A stretch of 64,000 bases of DNA from Hyphomicrobiales bacterium (GTDB taxonomy: Bacteria; Pseudomonadota; Alphaproteobacteria; Rhizobiales; Xanthobacteraceae). Below are positions 31,436 through 60,567 of the stretch, piece after piece. The notes beneath the pieces were generated by a model. That model ran no database searches. It saw nothing but the letters and a program-made list of their open reading frames with translations, and had not been told where the DNA came from. Location: positions 37,473-101,472 of the forward strand of contig WHTP01000002.1 in NCBI GenBank assembly GCA_009377695.1. The letters are read 5' to 3'. A program made the translations under genes and the position numbers. How positions within the stretch are numbered: the first letter of the stretch is position 1; every line of letters begins with the position of its first letter.

Positions 31436-31762
31436 TCAGAAGGGGACTTCGTCGTCGATCGACGGCGGCTTGCGCCGGCGCCACGGCACGAAGATCGCGA
31501 CCAGCCGTTGCCACCGATCGCGCCAAAGCTCGCGCCGCATGGCGCGGTCGTACTCGCGCTGGTGCTGCGCATCGCGTGCGATCTGCTCTGAGGTGAGCGA
31601 AAATACTTCGCCGCAGCGGTCGCACTGCACGCGGCCGCAGAGGACATCGAATTCTGAATAGTCCTCGTGCGTGCAGTTCTCGTAGTCCGGCTCGGGGGGA
31701 TCGTCCCAATAGCCGTCGTCGTAGTCGTAGTCGCGATCAGGGTCCGACCAGCCGGGCATCAT
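31436..31762 (-). CDS. Hypothetical phage protein (acidic N-terminus, Cys pairs)
   Basis: Track ORF. 4-nt overlap with the upstream gene. Confidence 0.55.
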   Translation of the reverse strand: MMPGWSDPDRDYDYDDGYWDDPPEPDYENCTHEDYSEFDVLCGRVQCDRCGEVFSLTSEQIARDAQHQREYDRAMRRELWRDRWQRLVAIFVPWRRRKPPSIDDEVPF

Positions 31763-40285: not shown

Positions 40286-40938
40286 CGCGGCTTCAGGCTC
40301 TTGACCCGGGCCGCCCATTCCACCTTCACGTTCTCGATAGGGTCGCCGAAGTCGCTGACAAGATTGAATAATCCATGCGCGCGGCTGCGCATGAGCTTCT
40401 TGACCAGGACCTGCCCGTTCTCGAGCCCGACCACGCAGAGCTTGCCGATCAGGTCGGGCGTCACCGGCCGGCGGACGTCATCGTAGAACACCAGCGCGCG
40501 GTCCCAGGTCGGGCCAAGGCTGTTGCCGCGAATCTCAACCGCAACGGTGCGCAGCGTGGCATCGGCGGGGGCGGGGGCCTCGTCGAGATCGCCTTGATTA
40601 ACCGCATAAAAATGGGCCTGAGCGCCGGCGCCAACATACCCTTTCACCCGCACCACTGGCGGCCGCGATTCGTCAGGGGCGTCCGGTTCAAAGGAGGACT
40701 CGTCGTCATGGTCGGGGCGAGGCCCGCGGCCGGTGAGCAGGTATTCCGGGGCGACCTTGAAACGCCGCGCGTAGATCCTCGCCTCGTCGGGCCCGTAGTC
40801 ACGGCCACCGGGATCCTCGGCGCGCTCATGGGCGCCGTAGGTGGACGCAGCCATGTCCAAGGCCCGCGCCGCCTGCCGCGCGGATTTGAAGAACTGTTCG
40901 CGCGCCAGGCGCAGCCGTTGTCCCCGGGTCGTAGTCAT
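40282..40938 (-). CDS. CI-like phage repressor (HTH plus LexA/S24 peptidase domain)
   Basis: N-terminal HTH (RLRLAREQFFKSARQAARALDMAASTYGAHE). C-terminal GNSLGP (Ser) and VKKL (Lys) dyad context. Confidence 0.85.
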   Translation of the reverse strand: MTTTRGQRLRLAREQFFKSARQAARALDMAASTYGAHERAEDPGGRDYGPDEARIYARRFKVAPEYLLTGRGPRPDHDDESSFEPDAPDESRPPVVRVKGYVGAGAQAHFYAVNQGDLDEAPAPADATLRTVAVEIRGNSLGPTWDRALVFYDDVRRPVTPDLIGKLCVVGLENGQVLVKKLMRSRAHGLFNLVSDFGDPIENVKVEWAARVKSLKPR

Positions 40939-48961: not shown

Positions 48962-49690
48962 TCAGTACCGCGCCGCGACCGGTGCCGACCACGGGCCAAA
49001 GCGATAGTTGATACCGAACTTCACGACGTGGATCTCTTGATCGATGTCGAGCGGAAATGTGAAGTTGTTGTCTGGGAATGTGAGGTCCACGCTGTCGCTG
49101 CCGAAGTTCAAATATTGATACTCGCCCTTGGCCGACCAGTTGCCTCCCAGCGCCACCTCGATGCCGCCGCCGACAGTCCAGCCGGTGCGGGTAGTGTCAC
49201 CACTGGCGACGCGAGACGGATCAGATATGCGGGCGAAGTCGAATTTGTCATGTGCGAACGCGAAGCCGCCCTTGGCGTAGACGAGCACGCGGTCAAAGGC
49301 ATAGCCGAGGCGGCCAGTGACGGTGCCGAGCCACTCGACTTTGCTTGAGAACTTTTGGCCAAAGATGTCTGTATGATCGCCGGTCAGGTCTGCCCAGCTG
49401 ATATCAGCCTCAAGGCCGAGGACCCAATTGCTCGGGCTCTGCCAATTGAAGCCGATCTGACCACCGGCGATAAAGCCGTTCGTATCATGCGACCCCAACG
49501 GATCGCCATTATCAAACCAATCCTTGGTGCCGAATCCACCACCGACGTGCGCGCCGATGTAGAAGCCGGTCCAATTATAGACCATCGGAGGAGGCGGCGG
49601 CGGAGCCTTGTAAACCGGCATGTCGGCAGCCAATGCAGGACCGGCGATCAAGGCGCCAGTGGCGACGCCAGCCAGCAGGATTTTCCTCAT
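48962..49690 (-). CDS. Omp25/Omp31/RopB-like beta-barrel outer membrane protein
   Basis: Signal peptide MRKILLAGVATGALIAGPALA, then YNWTGFYIGAHVGGGFG...GINYRF-type strands. Confidence 0.85.
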   Translation of the reverse strand: MRKILLAGVATGALIAGPALAADMPVYKAPPPPPPMVYNWTGFYIGAHVGGGFGTKDWFDNGDPLGSHDTNGFIAGGQIGFNWQSPSNWVLGLEADISWADLTGDHTDIFGQKFSSKVEWLGTVTGRLGYAFDRVLVYAKGGFAFAHDKFDFARISDPSRVASGDTTRTGWTVGGGIEVALGGNWSAKGEYQYLNFGSDSVDLTFPDNNFTFPLDIDQEIHVVKFGINYRFGPWSAPVAARY

Positions 49691-49899
49691 GATAGCCCCC
49701 GAGTCTAAAAGCTGTAGGGCATTAATAGCACACGCAACCGGCAATCGTTGTTGCAGCGGGACCACAAGTCACAATTAATCGCAAGTGCGTTAGCGTCGTT
49801 TGGCGGTAGCTACTTGCCGCTCGCGCGGCCCCCTGCACGGTTGCCGGGATCAAGACCGAGGTCCTGTCCTAATTCCAGCCCCCGTTGTCGCAGTTCCCG

Positions 49900-52971: not shown

Positions 52972-53171
52972 TGACCCATACCAACTACGTGATCGCGCTG
53001 GCATCGGGTGCTGGCTACTACCTTGGCGAGGGTTGCTGGACCACCAACCCAGCCAATGCGCTGCGGTTTCGTGACGAAGATCACGCCCGCGCATATGCCG
53101 ACCGCCGACTAGCGGATGGATGCTTCTCCGTTGAACGCGAGCACACGCGACCGAATGTCTCCACTCGCTAA
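52968..53171 (+). CDS. Hypothetical small phage protein
   Basis: Track ORF, coupled to its neighbours. Confidence 0.5.
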   Translation: MMTHTNYVIALASGAGYYLGEGCWTTNPANALRFRDEDHARAYADRRLADGCFSVEREHTRPNVSTR

Positions 53172-53724
53172 CGCCAAACGCGAAGCCTTTGCCCGCGCGA
53201 TCGTCGAGGGCAAGTCGGGCCGGGAAGCCTATCGCTCCGCCGGCTACAAGCCGAAGAACGACGCCACCGCCGACGCCTGCGCCTCGCGGCTCCTGGCAGA
53301 GCCGGCCGTTGCGGCCCGTGTCACCGTGCTCAAGGAGGCGGCCGCCGACGATAGCGTGATGTCGGCGCGCGAGGTGCTCGAGGAACTTTCAAAGCTCGGG
53401 CGATCGTCGATCAAGAACTGCATCGTCAACGGCGACGACGCCGGCGAGGTTATTGCGTCGCTTAGCGACATGCCCGACGAGGTTGCTGCGACCATCCAGG
53501 AGATGACGGTCGAGACCTACACGGAGGGTCGCGGCGACAACGCGCGCGGGGTGAAGCGCGTGCGGCTCAAGCTGCACTCGAAAACCTCCGCGCTCGATCT
53601 CCTCGGCAAGCACTACAAGCTGTTCACCGAGAAGCACGAGCACGACCTGTCCGACCCGCTGAAACAGTTGCTCGCCGACATCAGCGGCACGGCGTTCCGG
53701 CCCAGCGATGGCGACGGCAAGTGA
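53155..53724 (+). CDS. Terminase small subunit
   Basis: MSPLANAKREAFARAIVEGKSGREAYRSAGYKPKNDATADACASRLL... is the typical Terminase_2-type N-terminus. Confidence 0.8.
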   Translation: MSPLANAKREAFARAIVEGKSGREAYRSAGYKPKNDATADACASRLLAEPAVAARVTVLKEAAADDSVMSAREVLEELSKLGRSSIKNCIVNGDDAGEVIASLSDMPDEVAATIQEMTVETYTEGRGDNARGVKRVRLKLHSKTSALDLLGKHYKLFTEKHEHDLSDPLKQLLADISGTAFRPSDGDGK

Positions 53725-55240
53725 CGGCCTGCCGGCCGAGCAAGCGGCGCTGAAGGAGCTGCTGCGCGAGCCGAACTGGCGGCTGCGCAATCTCTACTGG
53801 ATCACGGACAAGGACGGGCGCGAGCTTCTGTTCGCGCCATGGACGGAGCAGGAGAAGCTGCTCGGCAATCTGTGGTACCGCAACATCATCCTGAAGGCCC
53901 GGCAGCGCGGCTTCTCCACGCTAATCCAGGTCGTGATGTTGGACACCTGCCTGTTCAACAAGAACACCAACGCCTCCATCATCGCGCAGGACAAGGACGC
54001 GGCGACCGCGATCTTCCGGACCAAGATCAAGTTCGCCTACGACAAGCTGCCGGCGCCGATCCGGGCGATGAACCCGCTGGTGAAGGATTCCGAAAGCGAA
54101 TTGATCCTGGCGAACGGCTCGGCGCTCAAGGTCGCGACCTCGGCGCGCAGCGGCACGCTGCAATGGCTGCATGTGTCGGAGTTCGGCAAGATCTGCGCGA
54201 AGTACCCGGAGAAGGCCAGGGAGATACTCTCCGGCTCGATTCCGGCCGTCGACCAGAACGGCATCGTCTGCATCGAGTCGACCGCGGAGGGACGAGAGGG
54301 CGCCTTCTTCGAGATGACGCAGCGTGCGCGTGAGCACGCCGACGCGCAGCGCCCGCTTTCGAAGCTCGACTTCCGCTTCCACTTCGCGTCGTGGTGGGAT
54401 GCCGACGAATACGAGCTCGACCCGGCGAAGGTCGTGGTCTCACCGACCGACAATGCGTACTTCGCGCGGCTGGAGGCCGAGATCGGCCGCGAGATCAGCC
54501 CGGCCAAGCGTGCCTGGTACGTAGCGCAGCGCGACAACACGTTCTCCGGCGATCGCGAGATCATGTTTCGCGAGTATCCCTCGACGCCGGACGAGGCATT
54601 CGAGCAATCGACCGAGGGCGTCTATCTCGCCGACCAACTCGCGTTGGCGCGCCGGCAGGGCCGCATCGGCGCGGTGCCTTACGATCCGCGCGTCCCGGTC
54701 AACACGTTCTGGGATCTCGGCCTCGACGACTCGATGGTGATCTGGCTGCACCAGCGCATCGGGCTCAAAGACCACTTCATCGGCTTCATTGAAGGGTCCG
54801 GCGAGCCTTACGGCTACTACGTGCGCGAGTTGCAGAAGCTCGGCTACGTCTGGGGCAAGCACTACCTGCCGCACGACGGCGACCACCGCGCGCCGGGATC
54901 CGAGAGTCTCAAGACGCCGGTCGACATGCTGACCGAGTTGGGGCTGCGCAACATCGAGATCGTGCCGCGTACCTCCGACCTGGTGGCGGCGATCCAGATG
55001 TTGCGGGACGATTTCAATACGTACTGGTTCGACGAGACCGCCTGCGCCGAAGGGCTCAAGCACCTCGCGGGCTATCGCAAGGACTGGAACGAGCGGCTGG
55101 GCGTTTGGTCCGAACGGCCACGCAAGAACGGCCACCAGCATGCCGCCGACGCGCTGCGCCAGAAAGCGCAGGGCTACTCGCCGACAAGCGCGTCCAGCGG
55201 CAAGCGCCGCAACCGCAATCGGTCCGCGATGGCGGTGTGA
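53708..55240 (+). CDS. Terminase large subunit
   Basis: ...NIILKARQRGFSTLI... ATPase motif context, 510 aa, directly after TerS. Confidence 0.85.
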   Translation: MATASDGLPAEQAALKELLREPNWRLRNLYWITDKDGRELLFAPWTEQEKLLGNLWYRNIILKARQRGFSTLIQVVMLDTCLFNKNTNASIIAQDKDAATAIFRTKIKFAYDKLPAPIRAMNPLVKDSESELILANGSALKVATSARSGTLQWLHVSEFGKICAKYPEKAREILSGSIPAVDQNGIVCIESTAEGREGAFFEMTQRAREHADAQRPLSKLDFRFHFASWWDADEYELDPAKVVVSPTDNAYFARLEAEIGREISPAKRAWYVAQRDNTFSGDREIMFREYPSTPDEAFEQSTEGVYLADQLALARRQGRIGAVPYDPRVPVNTFWDLGLDDSMVIWLHQRIGLKDHFIGFIEGSGEPYGYYVRELQKLGYVWGKHYLPHDGDHRAPGSESLKTPVDMLTELGLRNIEIVPRTSDLVAAIQMLRDDFNTYWFDETACAEGLKHLAGYRKDWNERLGVWSERPRKNGHQHAADALRQKAQGYSPTSASSGKRRNRNRSAMAV

Positions 55241-55463: not shown

Positions 55464-55901
55464 ATGAAAGCCGCGATCGACCTCACGCGCTATCACGCGC
55501 GCGCGCAGCACGGCGACATCACCGCCTATCTGACGTGGTGGCTGGCCGACGACGGCGGCCCGCGCCCCTGCATCGTGCTGATCCCGACGCGCATGCACGA
55601 GAGGGTGCAGCCCTGCGTCGTCCATATCGAGCAGGCGTGGATGTGGTCCGAGGAGATCGGCGACCCCGAGCGGGCCTGCCGGCTGGCGTTCGCGTTTGCC
55701 GCCGCGCTGGGCCTCGACGTCAACAACCAGATGAACGTGTTCCGGGTGCGCTCGATCATCGTCGATCACCTGGGCGACCTGCTCACCATGCCGCCGATGC
55801 CAGACGACATGCGCGAGAGCGTGGTCATCGGCGAGGCCAAGGTGACGAACCGCGAGGCGGGCACGGTGGTCCGCCACGAAGAGATCACCGATCGTGTTTG
55901 A
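55464..55901 (+). CDS. Hypothetical phage protein
   Basis: ATG 55464 (MKAAIDLTRYH...). Its stop overlaps the portal start. Confidence 0.55.
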   Translation: MKAAIDLTRYHARAQHGDITAYLTWWLADDGGPRPCIVLIPTRMHERVQPCVVHIEQAWMWSEEIGDPERACRLAFAFAAALGLDVNNQMNVFRVRSIIVDHLGDLLTMPPMPDDMRESVVIGEAKVTNREAGTVVRHEEITDRV

Positions 55902-58176
55902 CCTGCGCGACGATGCCCTGACCGGACGCAAGCGCGCCGATAGTCCGATCCCGGAATCGGCAGACGCGGCTGCGCCGGCTGCGCCGGCGGAGCAACACAA
56001 GCTCGACAGCCCGGAGAGCATCGAAATCTGGCAGCGGATGCTCGACGCCTACACCCGCGAGCTCGACCGCCAGGAGGAGAACCGCCACGAGATGGCGGTC
56101 GACGAGGATTTCTACGACAACATCCAGTACCGCGAGGAAGACGCCCTTGCGCTCGAGGATCGCGGCCAGAAGCCCGTCGTCTACAACGTCATCGCAACCA
56201 CGGTCGATTGGGTGCTCGGCACCGAGAAGCGCGCCCGCGCCGACTTCAAGGTGCTGCCGCGGCGCAAGGACGATGCCAAGCCGGCGGAGCGCAAGTCGCA
56301 GATCCTCAAGTATCTGTCCGACGTCAACCGCACGCCGTTCGAGCGCTCGCGCGCCTTCGCCGATGCGGTCAAGGTCGGCATCGGCTGGATCGAGGATTGC
56401 GTTGAGGAGGACGGCGAGGGCGAGCCGATCGTGTCGCGCTACGAAAACTGGCGCAACATGCTGTGGGACTCGGCGGCGATCCGGCCCGACCTGCAGGACG
56501 GCCGCTACGTCTACCGCTCCAAGTGGGTCGACCTCGACATCATGCAGGCGATGTTCCGGGAGCGGGCAGGGCTCTTGGAGCGCGCCGCCCGTGACGCCGA
56601 GCCGCTGACGCATTCCGGCGAATACGGCGACGAGCCGATGGACCGCGCCGAATTGGAGATGGAGCGCGTCGGCTCGGCGGCGCGATTGCCCAACCGCTAC
56701 CAGCGCGAGCGGGTGCGCGTGATCGAGGGCTGGTTCCGCAAGCCGCAGAAGGTGCAGCGCATTTCCGGCGGACCATTCACCGGCGAACTGTACGACCCGC
56801 ATTCGCCCGGCCATCGCGAGGCGGTCGACAGCGGCGAGGCCGAGCTTGTCGAGCGCGTGACGCTGCGCGTGCATTGCGCGCTGTTCACCGTCACCGGCCT
56901 GCTCTGGCTCGGCCCGTCGCCCTACCGGCACAACCGCTTCCCGTTCACCCCGGTATGGGGCAATCGCCGCGGTCGCGACGGCATGCCCTACGGGATGGTC
57001 CGACGCCTCAAGGACATCAACGAGGACATCAACAAGCGCGTCTCGAAGGCGCTGTTCCTGCTCTCGACCAACCGCGTGATCGCGGACGAGGGCGCCGCCG
57101 ACGACATGGACGAGTTGTTCGACGAGGCGCGCCGCCCCGACGCCAACATCGTCAAGAAGCCGGGCAAGGAAGTCCGCATCGAGACCGAAATGCAACTCGC
57201 CGACGCCCACATCATGCTGATGCAGCAGTCGATCGCGATGATCCAGCGCGCCGGCGGCGTTACCGACGAGAACCAGGGGCTTCGGACCAACGCCACCTCC
57301 GGCATCGCGATCGAGCGCCGGCAAGACCAGGGTGCGGTCGCGACCACGCTCTACTTCGACAATCTGCGGCTGGCGGCCCAGGTGCAGGGCGAGAAGCAAC
57401 TGTCCTTGGTCGAGCAGTTCATGACCGAGCAGAAGCAGTTCCGCATCACCAACATGCGGGGCAAGCCCGAGTTCATTACGGTCAACGACGGGCTGCCTGA
57501 GAACGACATCGTTCGCTCCAAGGCCGACTACGCGATCTCGGAGTCCGACTGGCGTGCCTCGATGCGCGCCGCCGCCGCCGACGAGTTGCTCAATTTGCTG
57601 ATGAAGCTCGCCCCGGCCTCGCCGGAGGTTGCGCTCGCCATCCTCGACCTTGTGGTCGAGCAGATGGACGTGACCAACCGCGAGGAGATCGTCCGGCGCC
57701 TGCGCGACATCACCGGCATGCCGGATCCCGACGCCGACGAGCCGACGCCGGAGGAACAGCAGCGCGCCGCCGCGAAGCAGCAGCAGGCGCAGTTGCAGCA
57801 GGCGACCGTAGAGGCGCAGCTGCGCAAGCTCGTGGCCGAGGCGGTCAAGGCCGAGATGCTGGCGGAGAAGGCCGGGGCGGACACGGTACGCGCCAACATC
57901 TCGTCGATCGGCGGCCCCAAGCGCGGCGCCATCGACATCATTGCCGATGTGATGGGCGCACCTGCCATCGCACCCGCGGCCGACGAGGTGCTGCGCGAAG
58001 CGGGCTTCGTCGGTCGCGGAGAGAAAGAAGCGGCGCAGGTGCAGGCCCTCCAAGATGCGCAAGCCGCTGGGCAAGCGGCGGCGTCGGCGCAAGGAAATCC
58101 ACCCGCTGCCCCCGGCCTGGGCCTGGGCCAGGACGCGGGACAACCCCCACAAGGAGCACCCAATGGCGAAGCGTGA
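55894..58176 (+). CDS. Portal protein
   Basis: 760 aa, GTG start. ...MAVDEDFYDNIQYREEDALALEDRGQKPVVYNVIATTVDWVLG... is a typical podovirus-like portal N-terminus. Position between terminase and scaffold fits. Confidence 0.8.
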   Translation: MFDLRDDALTGRKRADSPIPESADAAAPAAPAEQHKLDSPESIEIWQRMLDAYTRELDRQEENRHEMAVDEDFYDNIQYREEDALALEDRGQKPVVYNVIATTVDWVLGTEKRARADFKVLPRRKDDAKPAERKSQILKYLSDVNRTPFERSRAFADAVKVGIGWIEDCVEEDGEGEPIVSRYENWRNMLWDSAAIRPDLQDGRYVYRSKWVDLDIMQAMFRERAGLLERAARDAEPLTHSGEYGDEPMDRAELEMERVGSAARLPNRYQRERVRVIEGWFRKPQKVQRISGGPFTGELYDPHSPGHREAVDSGEAELVERVTLRVHCALFTVTGLLWLGPSPYRHNRFPFTPVWGNRRGRDGMPYGMVRRLKDINEDINKRVSKALFLLSTNRVIADEGAADDMDELFDEARRPDANIVKKPGKEVRIETEMQLADAHIMLMQQSIAMIQRAGGVTDENQGLRTNATSGIAIERRQDQGAVATTLYFDNLRLAAQVQGEKQLSLVEQFMTEQKQFRITNMRGKPEFITVNDGLPENDIVRSKADYAISESDWRASMRAAAADELLNLLMKLAPASPEVALAILDLVVEQMDVTNREEIVRRLRDITGMPDPDADEPTPEEQQRAAAKQQQAQLQQATVEAQLRKLVAEAVKAEMLAEKAGADTVRANISSIGGPKRGAIDIIADVMGAPAIAPAADEVLREAGFVGRGEKEAAQVQALQDAQAAGQAAASAQGNPPAAPGLGLGQDAGQPPQGAPNGEA

Positions 58177-59182
58177 CGACCTCAACGAGGATCTGGGCCT
58201 GACCGAGGACGAGCGCGCGGCGCTCGAGGAAGGCGAGGCCGAGGACGCCGCCACAGCCAAGGCCGAAGGCGACGCCACCGCGTTCGACTTCAACGAGGCG
58301 AAGGGCGCGGTGAAGGACGACGCCAAGGCTGATGACAAGGCCGACGCCAAGCCCGAGCCGGCCGCGGATGCCAAGGCTGATGACAAGAAGGCTGACGACA
58401 AGCCGGCGGAGGCGAAGGGCGACGACGCGGCCAAGACCGACGCGGCCAACGCGGATGACGGCGCCGAGAAGGGCGACGGCAAAGGCGCCGACGCCAAGAC
58501 CGACACCAAGCCCGACACCGAGGCCCGCGCCCCGCGCCAGGCGGTGCCGGCATGGACCGCGCCCGCGGACGCCGAGGCGCAGCTCACGCAACTCGCGACC
58601 GAGCGCGATCAACTCGCCGAACGCTTCGACAACGGCGAGATCACCGCCAAGGAACTGCTCTCCAAGCAGGCGGAGATCGCCTCGCGCGAGCGCAAGATCG
58701 AGCGCGACCGCGACCGCGCCGAAATGGCAAGCGAGATGGCGACGGCCGTGTGGACGCAGACCACGGTGCCGACCTTCCTCGACGCTCACCCGCACTACCG
58801 CAACAACCAGACGCTAAACGGCATGCTCGACGCCGAGGTGCGCCGGTTGCAGGTCGCTGCGATGGAGGCCGGCAAGGATCAGCTGGACCCGTCGATCCTG
58901 ATTGACGCCGACGCGAACATCGCCGCCGCGCTGGCGCCGTTCGGCGTGAAGCCCAAGGTGGCAGCCTCGGCCGCAGCCGACGCCGGCAAGACCGCCGCGC
59001 CTGCAGGCAAGCCCGAGATCCCGCCGACGCTCGGCACGCTGCCGGCGACCGAGATCACCGGCACCGGCGACGGCAAGTACGCCAGCCTCGACCGCCTCGC
59101 CGAAGCCAACCCCATCGCCTTCGAGGACGCGCTGGCGAAGCTGCCAGAGGCGGAGCGCGAGGCGTATCTGCGCGCGCACTAA
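58163..59182 (+). CDS. Scaffolding protein
   Basis: AAGGAG precedes ATG 58163. Acidic, Ala/Asp/Lys-rich, coiled coil. Position between portal and capsid fits. Confidence 0.7.
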   Translation: MAKRDDLNEDLGLTEDERAALEEGEAEDAATAKAEGDATAFDFNEAKGAVKDDAKADDKADAKPEPAADAKADDKKADDKPAEAKGDDAAKTDAANADDGAEKGDGKGADAKTDTKPDTEARAPRQAVPAWTAPADAEAQLTQLATERDQLAERFDNGEITAKELLSKQAEIASRERKIERDRDRAEMASEMATAVWTQTTVPTFLDAHPHYRNNQTLNGMLDAEVRRLQVAAMEAGKDQLDPSILIDADANIAAALAPFGVKPKVAASAAADAGKTAAPAGKPEIPPTLGTLPATEITGTGDGKYASLDRLAEANPIAFEDALAKLPEAEREAYLRAH

Positions 59183-59413
59183 ATGCCGCTCAAACTGTCC
59201 GTCCGCGTCGGCCAATCCATCGCGATCGGCGGACCCACGACACTGCGGGTTGAGAGCAAATCCGGGCAGGAAATCGGCCTCGTCTTCGATGCCGACCGCT
59301 CGGTGCCGATCCGCATCATCGACGACGCGCCCGCGAAAGCCGCGACGGGCGCGACGGGCCTTGGCCTCGAAGGGCGGGACACCCCGCCATCGCCCGGCCT
59401 CGGCCGCAAATAG
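59183..59413 (+). CDS. CsrA-like small protein (carbon storage regulator fold candidate)
   Basis: MPLKLSVRVGQSIAIGGPTTLRVESKSGQEIGLVFDADRSVPIRIIDD aligns by eye to CsrA [47 protein letters not shown]. Confidence 0.4.
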   Translation: MPLKLSVRVGQSIAIGGPTTLRVESKSGQEIGLVFDADRSVPIRIIDDAPAKAATGATGLGLEGRDTPPSPGLGRK

Positions 59414-59466
59414 CGGCATCACCCACTGGCGCATGACGGGCCGGTTCTGAAAAGGAGTCAGTCTCA

Positions 59467-60567
59467 ATGAAGACGACTGTTCCCGTCGGCGACCCGAAGG
59501 CAATCAAGCGTTGGTCCGCCGAGCTATTCCTCGACACCGCGAAGAAGAGCTACTTCGAGCGCAAGTTCATCGGCACCACCGACAACGCGATCATCCAGCG
59601 CCTTACGGATCTGGAGTCGGCGGCCGGCGACACCATCACCTACGATCTCTCGCTGCAGCTGCGCAAGAAGCCGGTCTACGGCGACGATCGCGCACAAGGC
59701 AAGTCGGAGGAACTGAAGTTCGCTACCGACGAGGTCAAGATCGACCAGATGCGCGCTCCGGTCTCGGCCGGCGGCCGCATGACCCGCAAGCGCACGCTGC
59801 ACGACCTGCGGCGCGTTGCCCGCGATCGCCTCGGCGACTACTGGTCGCGCTTCCTCGACGAGATGATGTTCATCTATCTCTCGGGCGCGCGCGGCATCAA
59901 CGAGGACTACATCGAGGACGTGACCTGGGTTGGCCACGCCGGCAACCCGATCCAGGCGCCGGACGCCACCCACCTCATCTTCGGCGGCACCGCGACCAGC
60001 AAAGCCACGATCGTCGCCGCCGACAAGATGGCGCGTGCGGTGATCGAGAAGGCGGCGGTCAAGGCCCAGATGATCCGCTCCACCGACCCCGAGAACCCGA
60101 ACATGCTGCCGTCCAACATCATGGGCGAGGGGCATTTCGTGATGGTCATGACCCCGTTCCAGGAGCACGACCTGCGACTGGAGTCGGGTGCGCAAGGCTG
60201 GCTCGAGATCCAGAAGGCGGCGGCGGCGGCGGAAGGCCGCAACAACCCGATCTTCAAGGGCTCGCTCGGCATGATCAACAAGGTCGTGCTGCACAGCCAC
60301 GAGTCGATCATCCGCTTCAACGACTACGGCGCCGGCACGGATCTGCCGGCCGCACGTGCGCTGTTCCTCGGCCGCCAGGCCGGCGTCTGCGCCTACGGCA
60401 CCGCCGGCGGCACGCGCTTCCAGTGGGAAGAGGAGCTCACCGACTTCAAGAACCAGGTCGACATCGCCGCCGGCACCATCCTCGGCGTCAAGAAGACCCG
60501 GTTCAAGAACCGCGACTTCGGCGTCATCGCGATCGACACCTACGCCAAGGACCCGAACGCGGCGTAA
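59467..60567 (+). CDS. Major capsid protein, N4-gp56 family
   Basis: MKTTVPVGDPKAIKRWSAELFLDTAKKSYFERKFIGTTDNAIIQ...GDTITYDL... is the hallmark N-terminus of this family (from memory). Confidence 0.8.
   Translation: MKTTVPVGDPKAIKRWSAELFLDTAKKSYFERKFIGTTDNAIIQRLTDLESAAGDTITYDLSLQLRKKPVYGDDRAQGKSEELKFATDEVKIDQMRAPVSAGGRMTRKRTLHDLRRVARDRLGDYWSRFLDEMMFIYLSGARGINEDYIEDVTWVGHAGNPIQAPDATHLIFGGTATSKATIVAADKMARAVIEKAAVKAQMIRSTDPENPNMLPSNIMGEGHFVMVMTPFQEHDLRLESGAQGWLEIQKAAAAAEGRNNPIFKGSLGMINKVVLHSHESIIRFNDYGAGTDLPAARALFLGRQAGVCAYGTAGGTRFQWEEELTDFKNQVDIAAGTILGVKKTRFKNRDFGVIAIDTYAKDPNAA

Follow-up and report, generated by a model that had tools for sequence, protein, structure and literature searches.

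CsrA, a global bacterial regulator, recognizes RNA sites with the SELEX consensus CA-R-GGA-UG. The canonical protein needs the GGA, and Arg44 is the residue most critical to RNA binding in E. coli CsrA. Regulation can proceed by more than one route: CsrA activates E. coli ymdA by opening a hairpin that sequesters the Shine-Dalgarno (SD) sequence, and it represses through two sites in the glgC leader.

Phage homologs of CsrA have been on record since 2011, mostly written off as host-directed 'morons'. The closest described set is the Bcep22-like family PHROG 8397, with members in BcepIL02, BcepMigl, DC1, Ralstonia phage GP4, Erwinia phages Pavtok and PEp14, Klebsiella phage SopranoGao, Serratia phage Parlo and Pseudomonas phage Itty13. 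A published list of homologs names Bcep22, BcepIL02, BcepMigl, DC1, GP4, PEp14, Parlo and SopranoGao, and describes the Burkholderia hosts of such phages as having no chromosomal csrA (Sobrero & Valverde 2020; PMC7366521). The sole phage CsrA homolog with a loss-of-function phenotype is gp28 of E. coli phage PTXU04, for which CRISPRi-ART knockdown resulted in smaller plaques (PMC11879866). This protein was not retrieved by tblastn with two members of the CsrA-like family; therefore, it probably represents a separate, more canonical lineage, and the knockdown result cannot simply be transferred.

The gene studied here is a further member of the family already annotated at the same spot in Bcep22-like phages. 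It lies in a window of 64,000 nucleotides (the whole stretch of DNA that was analysed) from an alphaproteobacterial host, for which a Xanthobacteraceae MAG was the nearest genome match. The ORF, delimited from the sequence, profile matches and a codon comparison, encodes 76 amino acids on the plus strand (59183-59413). A CsrA-like beta domain (residues 1-46, 59183-59320) is followed by a Pro/Gly/Ala-rich tail with two GLG motifs (residues 47-76, 59321-59410) and a TAG stop codon (59411-59413). Upstream on the same strand are genes for a portal protein (55894-58176; Pfam P22_portal, E=1.3e-177; phrog_156) and a scaffold-position protein (58160-59182; phrog_8246, E=1.2e-55, a PHROG without assigned function). 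The major capsid protein gene follows, also on the plus strand (59467-60567; PF13252 Phage_capsid_3, E=1.2e-67; phrog_334, E=1e-124), so that the ORF sits between scaffold and major capsid genes, where the first-pass annotation had placed it. The scaffold-position gene has no certain start (its longest ORF would begin at 58055), and a scaffold role for its product is presumed from its place between portal and capsid. No other recognizable RNA-binding protein was seen in the head module with Pfam and PHROG profiles. Further upstream, a 510-aa ORF (53708-55240) occupies the large-terminase position after a Terminase_2 small subunit (53116-53724), and is without a Pfam match at E<0.001. Immediately before the packaging genes, the minus strand carries a gene for an OMP_b-brl/OmpA-like outer-membrane beta-barrel (48962-49765), likely an accessory gene of the prophage region.

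As read in the first-pass annotation, the CsrA-like ORF begins at the ATG directly after the stop codon of the scaffold-position gene (TAAATG, 59180-59185; TAA 59180-59182, ATG from 59183). No SD sequence occurs within 15 nt 5' of this ATG. Since the ORF lacks such a sequence and abuts the scaffold stop codon, translational coupling to the scaffold gene is probable. A helix masking the start was not evident, the scaffold/CsrA-like junction folding at -30.2 kcal/mol as compared with -33.0 kcal/mol for shuffles. Codons 1-46 differ from those of four relatives by 22/6, 21/13, 26/4 and 17/12 synonymous/non-synonymous changes, and the ORF is a real coding gene under purifying selection. A mirror ORF of equal length on the minus strand (59179-59409) was rejected as the usual artefact of GC-rich DNA, the protein-family matches being in the plus frame.

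The resemblance to E. coli CsrA, originally noticed by eye, is weak in a pairwise comparison (27% identity, E=0.012) and becomes significant when profiles are used. The window protein matches PHROG 8397 ('CsrA-like regulator') at E=1.4e-9 over residues 1-46. The match to Pfam PF02599 (CsrA) over residues 3-43 has E=7.2e-5 and 23.1 bits, under the gathering score of 27, so that the profile comparison suggested earlier is positive for the PHROG family and falls short of the Pfam threshold. PF02599 is matched by 27 of the 28 close metagenomic homologs (best E=3.8e-7), and PHROG 8397 by 21 of the 28 members of a broad alignment (best E=6.7e-32). A profile made from 28 diverse phage homologs, searched against the PDB, identified RsmE (2jpp, E=1.5e-10) and, at E-values from 1e-7 to 2e-5, eight further CsrA-family proteins of solved structure, which include E. 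coli CsrA (1y00, E=1.2e-7), 2bti, 5z38, 1vpz, 7yr6, 5dmb and 1t3o. When the single sequence was searched against the PDB, the match to RsmE reached only E=0.14, and NCBIfam had no match for the protein. The earlier suggestion that a small beta fold might be all that is shared is overturned by the PHROG 8397 match, the PF02599 matches of the homologs and the profile matches to RsmE and CsrA, which together establish homology.

The alignment to CsrA spans beta1 to beta5 and stops at beta5. Retained in the window protein are the motifs L-x-L-x-x-R-V-G, I-G-G/D, K-S-G-Q and D-A-D-R-S-V. Residues L3, L5, R8, K26 and G28 show little or no variation in the 28 close homologs, conservation across the broad family is 90% or more at G10, G16, K26 and G28, and the CsrA beta1 pattern Leu2/Leu4/Arg7 and the Lys26-Gly27 turn are both present in the CsrA-like family. 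From these sequence comparisons we consider the window protein to be a true, very diverged CsrA-family homolog with a beta1-beta5 core and no C-terminal helix. At the positions that correspond to His43 and Arg44 of CsrA, hmmalign places Arg and Ile, respectively (VPIRI); an Arg aligned with Arg44 is kept by 17 of 42 distinct relatives. The monomer as modelled by AF2 (pLDDT 69) has three short strands and no Foldseek match in the PDB. A domain-swapped monomer is not expected to fold alone, and because CsrA is an intertwined (domain-swapped) dimer, this result is uninformative either way.

The C-terminal alpha-helix that follows beta5 in CsrA is not predicted. Instead, the tail is Pro/Gly/Ala-rich and has a pLDDT of about 50, in keeping with the first reading of a Gly/Pro/Ala-rich C-terminus; the last 30 residues have this composition, vary among homologs and are predicted to be disordered. 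The motif G-[ILVM]-[TSGP]-[GAE] (e.g. GITG and GLTG) occurs in the tails of 23 of 51 unique members, with 1.9 expected from shuffles, and in the window clade the tail contains GLGL and ends in PGLGRK. We take the G-I/L-T-G motif to recall encapsulin cargo-loading peptides.

The gene has a consistent genomic context across the family. Matches by tblastn were found in Ralstonia phages, where the RefSeq name is 'CsrA-like regulator', and the order portal, scaffold-position, CsrA-like and major head gene is common to Gervaise, UAM5, Bcep22, Itty13, Pavtok and SopranoGao, with one extra small ORF inside the portal-to-head run in Gervaise and Bcep22. The family includes Bcep22 gp54, Pavtok gp9, SopranoGao gp25, Gervaise gp09, JC1 gp47 and CSP3 orf23. 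The phage is Bcep22-like, and the N4-type framing used for it at first is abandoned. Eighty IMG/VR loci were retrieved by capsid protein (capsid identity 62-88%), and a CsrA-like ORF lies upstream of the capsid gene on the same strand in 47 of them, including all 20 of the nearest. Together with the named phages, these loci bear out the conservation of position that had been proposed as a check. Elsewhere among the 80 loci, divergent genes precede the capsid gene. The CsrA-like gene is found elsewhere in all nine relocated-capsid records that are at least 90% complete, and in Agrobacterium phage Atu_ph08, where it directly follows portal and scaffold genes and the capsid gene is 27 kb away. 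In two outgroups that share the capsid family, Vibrio phage D56 and an Stx2 phage (capsid identity 30-33%), the capsid gene directly follows the scaffold gene and no CsrA-like gene occurs anywhere. Phages with the gene in this operon place infect alpha-, beta- and gammaproteobacteria. Given its constant place in the late morphogenesis operon and its presence in all complete relatives examined, the CsrA-like gene behaves as a core gene of Bcep22-like podophages and is not an accessory 'moron'. In one clade (L037, as well as L038 and the L036-type phages), genes of 100 and 134 aa (L037:33-335 and 349-753) split the CsrA-like gene from the capsid promoter and leader box; by size and arrangement, this two-gene cassette may be an antitoxin-toxin-like pair.

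The fixed late-operon place and the presence in every complete genome checked speak against the proposal that the protein is a host-directed moron, one that mimics or replaces CsrA/RsmA and reprograms translation or carbon metabolism, or that disturbs Csr control. The literature leans this way, in that the JC1 and CSP3 papers label the gene a moron or carbon storage regulator (PMC9144972, PMC10269572), and plasmid and ICE homologs of CsrA do affect host networks (PMC7366521). However, the only match to PF02599 at E<0.01 in the host genome (5.85 Mb, 95%-complete) is the CsrA-like phage ORF, and PF02599 is absent from 40 related genomes (24 of the same genus and 16 of the same order); the controls E. 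coli, B. subtilis and T. maritima were all matched. No Rfam family reached its gathering score in the 64-kb window, leader included, hence there is no Csr/Rsm sponge RNA there. Since neither the host nor its 40 relatives have csrA, there is no visible target for Csr interference. The first-pass annotation was right to suspect an alphaproteobacterial host without canonical csrA, whereas the interference with host Csr/Rsm control that it envisaged is unlikely, the host having no such target system. Late-operon genes are also not expected to be expressed in lysogens, and we regard a host-directed role as improbable. A phage copy in a csrA-free host is less singular than was initially thought, as the Burkholderia phages provide a precedent (Sobrero & Valverde 2020; PMC7366521).

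Alternatively, the CsrA fold may have been reused for a head-assembly or virion-associated protein that would not regulate the leader box. Its tail would bind scaffold, portal or capsid interior, and the protein might be packaged and delivered on infection. Retention of the gene with portal and scaffold genes even when the capsid gene is 27 kb away would suit such a role, as would the translational coupling to the scaffold gene, the loss of the canonical Arg44 and C-terminal helix, and the recurrent tail motif (23 of 51 versus 1.9 expected). In addition, JC1 gp47 was detected in purified virions by mass spectrometry, although by a single peptide, evidence that its own authors call unconfirmed (PMC9144972). 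The tail motif, however, is missing in many members (those of the Pavtok, Itty13 and Atu_ph08 type), and conservation lies in the RNA-binding beta core, with its beta1 Leu/Leu/Arg residues and Lys26-Gly27. An Arg at the Arg44 position is also retained among relatives (17 of 42 distinct sequences). We therefore consider an assembly role doubtful.

The GGA in the ribosome binding sites of the capsid and scaffold genes had been offered as a clue to an RNA target, which is uninformative because every SD sequence contains GGA. A better candidate, brought out by comparison of the intergenic DNA that separates the CsrA-like and capsid genes, is a conserved box of 13 nt in the capsid leader. In the family its consensus is GCGCA[U/G/A]GA[C/U/-]G[U/G]GC (12-13 nt), and it is located 35-55 nt before the capsid start in nearly all of the 80 related loci and in the named phages. 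The box is conserved although the capsids are only 62-88% identical, and it is also present where the CsrA-like gene lies elsewhere. Neither D56 nor the Stx2 phage has the box.

A hairpin of -17 to -29 kcal/mol is formed in most relatives between the box, as 5' arm, and the SD-to-AUG region of the capsid gene, as 3' arm. The 5' arm pairs more strongly with its own start than with the starts of other phages (-14.0 versus -10.9 kcal/mol, permutation p=1e-4, the related phages not being independent), and in several clades the variable position of the box and its pairing partner change together: GACGUGC/GCACGUC, GAUGUGC/GCACAUC, GAGUGC/GCACUC and GGAUGGGC/GCCCAUCC. G-U pairs occur and the loops span 10-35 nt, both in favour of a box-TIR helix that acts in RNA rather than as a DNA operator. 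RNAalifold on a MAFFT alignment of the leaders, which returned an invariant 4-bp local stem as its only structure, with no covariation, was discarded; since loop lengths vary, the 3' arms were misaligned, and the own-versus-other duplex test was used instead. Beyond GCGC/GUGC, the outer positions of a local hairpin pair in 20-27 of 43 leaders, a weak excess over the 12-24 found in slid registers.

Box copies are not confined to capsid leaders. Complete relatives have 2-5 copies per genome, versus 0-1 for a reversed-pattern control. The box precedes the endolysin/lysis cassette in Pavtok (L115:1148-1160) and SopranoGao (minus strand of L117; record 2886-2898), a further late-gene copy occurs at L096:7932-7943, and in Atu_ph08 copies lie ahead of a DarB-like giant gene, a DUF847 lysozyme-like gene and a structural gene (extra boxes on the minus strand of L118, record 31605-31616, and at record 40450-40461). 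These extra boxes are 25-35 nt upstream of late genes, and each is just downstream of a -10-like element; a GCAC...CAUG partner follows most of them close to the start codon. Likewise, the distance between the capsid-leader box of relatives and promoter-like -10 elements varies from 10 to 20 nt. Within the 100 nt that precede the capsid start, many of the loci L021-L090 carry promoter elements close to consensus ahead of the box: TTGCAA and, after 17 nt, TATTTA/TAGAAT, or else GGTAAT(T)A.

The window has the box GCGCAUGACGGGC (= GCGCATGACGGGC; 13 nt, plus strand, 59429-59441), 26 nt upstream of the capsid ATG. There is one exact copy of GCGCATGACGGGC in the window, and searches of the prophage, the rest of the contig and the rest of the genome for further boxes gave chance-level matches only. 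RNAfold tentatively predicts a local hairpin on the plus strand, ACUGGC-G-C-[AUGAC]-G-G-GCCGGU (59425-59445), that would present the box loop. The capsid SD sequence, GGAG (59454-59457, plus strand), is about 19 nt downstream of this loop, a spacing that suits two-site bridging by a CsrA dimer. The box reads UGA, not GGA. The window leader as a whole has no extra stability (-17.0 kcal/mol versus -16.9 kcal/mol for shuffles). Pairing of the box with its own capsid start region is only -6.3 kcal/mol (rank 39 of 47), and the occluding helix is absent. The box is kept in the window clade without a pairing partner, which suggests that pairing is not all that constrains its sequence and that, for example, a protein may recognize it. 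A scan for sigma-70 promoters found no site in the 52.5-62 kb interval. The window clade has a GC-rich promoter remnant, GCGGCATCACCCA (59414-59426), and transcription of the capsid gene in this clade may depend on read-through from upstream.

We infer the link between protein and box from sequence comparison only, and with it dimerisation, RNA binding, the box as target and the direction of regulation. The CsrA-like gene and the box co-occur in all complete genomes checked, and both are absent from the two outgroups. This co-occurrence is lineage-wide and may go back to one ancestral event; thus, it cannot separate gene from box. A GGA is present in the box in 12 of 17 cases with an Arg at the CsrA-Arg44 position versus 2 of 25 without (Fisher p=3.6e-5 on raw counts). 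This association was rejected as evidence, since the five contrasts that control for phylogeny comprise two concordant, one discordant and two unchanged cases and are not significant. One concordant switch falls in the strongly supported window clade, with VPIVR and AUGGAU in L008/L009 as opposed to VPIRI and AUGAC in the window clade; the same loop base of the box is also constrained through pairing with the start codon.

As the box of relatives is just downstream of -10-like elements, it could serve another factor or the stability of the mRNA 5' end. One can therefore envisage an RNA-binding regulator with a different target, for instance in feedback on the portal-scaffold operon (cf. autoregulation by the P22 scaffold), the box then belonging to another factor or acting as a 5' stabilizer or start-occluder. 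The CsrA-like gene closes the portal-scaffold operon, the box of relatives lies at presumed transcript 5' ends, and box-TIR pairing alone can explain much of the box conservation in relatives, all of which would fit this arrangement. Yet the box in the window clade is conserved without a partner, the head module has no second recognizable RNA-binding protein, and the scaffold/CsrA-like junction is not unusually stable relative to its shuffles. Taken together, a target other than the box seems unlikely.

We favour the reading that the protein is a small, phage-private RNA-binding regulator of the phage's own late mRNA leaders, to which we assign a probability of about 0.45. Timing of late translation by the CsrA-like protein is plausible on this reading. 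The protein would be the last product of the portal-scaffold operon, made here by coupling to the scaffold gene, and would bind late leaders as a small dimer. The candidate site is GCGCA-N-GA-(C)-GUGC at the 5' end of the capsid leader, and the leaders of lysis and other late genes, which have the box in relatives, would be further sites. In relatives, binding could open or lock the helix between the box and the SD/AUG, which would make capsid synthesis depend on portal and scaffold having been made first. In the window, a CsrA-style two-site clamp on the box and the SD GGA 19 nt downstream would be more likely, with the protein acting as a repressor or tuner. More tentatively, protein and box could together constitute a phage-private switch that gates capsid, lysis and late operons, built on a CsrA fold that reads NGA, often lacks Arg44 and works without a host Csr system; this is possible and short of an even chance. 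As a less likely extension of this reading, the tail, which resembles the peptides that direct cargo proteins into encapsulin shells, might carry some of the regulator into the capsid.

The data favour a core late gene in a widespread podophage lineage, in which some host species have no Csr system, and a concrete candidate RNA target is now available for the CsrA-like family. If the proposal is true, the fold of a global bacterial regulator has been turned into a dedicated viral translation timer, and late protein synthesis depends on completed portal-scaffold expression even in Csr-free hosts. The window itself adds one more member, without the clearest RNA feature, the start-occluding helix.

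In comparison with CsrA, RsmA and RsmE (1y00, 2jpp, 1vpz), the phage protein has a homologous beta1-beta5 core, a similar net charge and the shared motifs L-x-L-x-x-R-V-G-E/Q, I-G-D/G, K-x-G-Q and D/N-A-P/D-K/R-x-V. It differs in being encoded by a phage within a morphogenesis operon and in lacking the C-terminal helix, and in the window Arg44 is replaced. The candidate box resembles a CsrA site in presenting CA-N-GA in a short GC stem, but has UGA or AGA as often as GGA. The host genes ymdA and glgC have canonical GGA sites, whereas the role of the phage protein here is a proposal; nevertheless, they are precedents for both directions of control, by competition with a TIR-occluding helix or by bridging of an upstream site and the SD sequence. 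Like its Bcep22-like relatives in PHROG 8397, the window protein belongs to a length class of 56-86 aa, is encoded in the portal-scaffold position, usually followed by a PF13252 capsid gene, and has a leader box upstream of that gene. It is distinguished from these relatives by a csrA-free alphaproteobacterial host, by Ile in place of Arg44, by a longer tail that contains two GLG motifs and ends in PGLGRK, and by a capsid leader without the start-occluding helix that most of them have.
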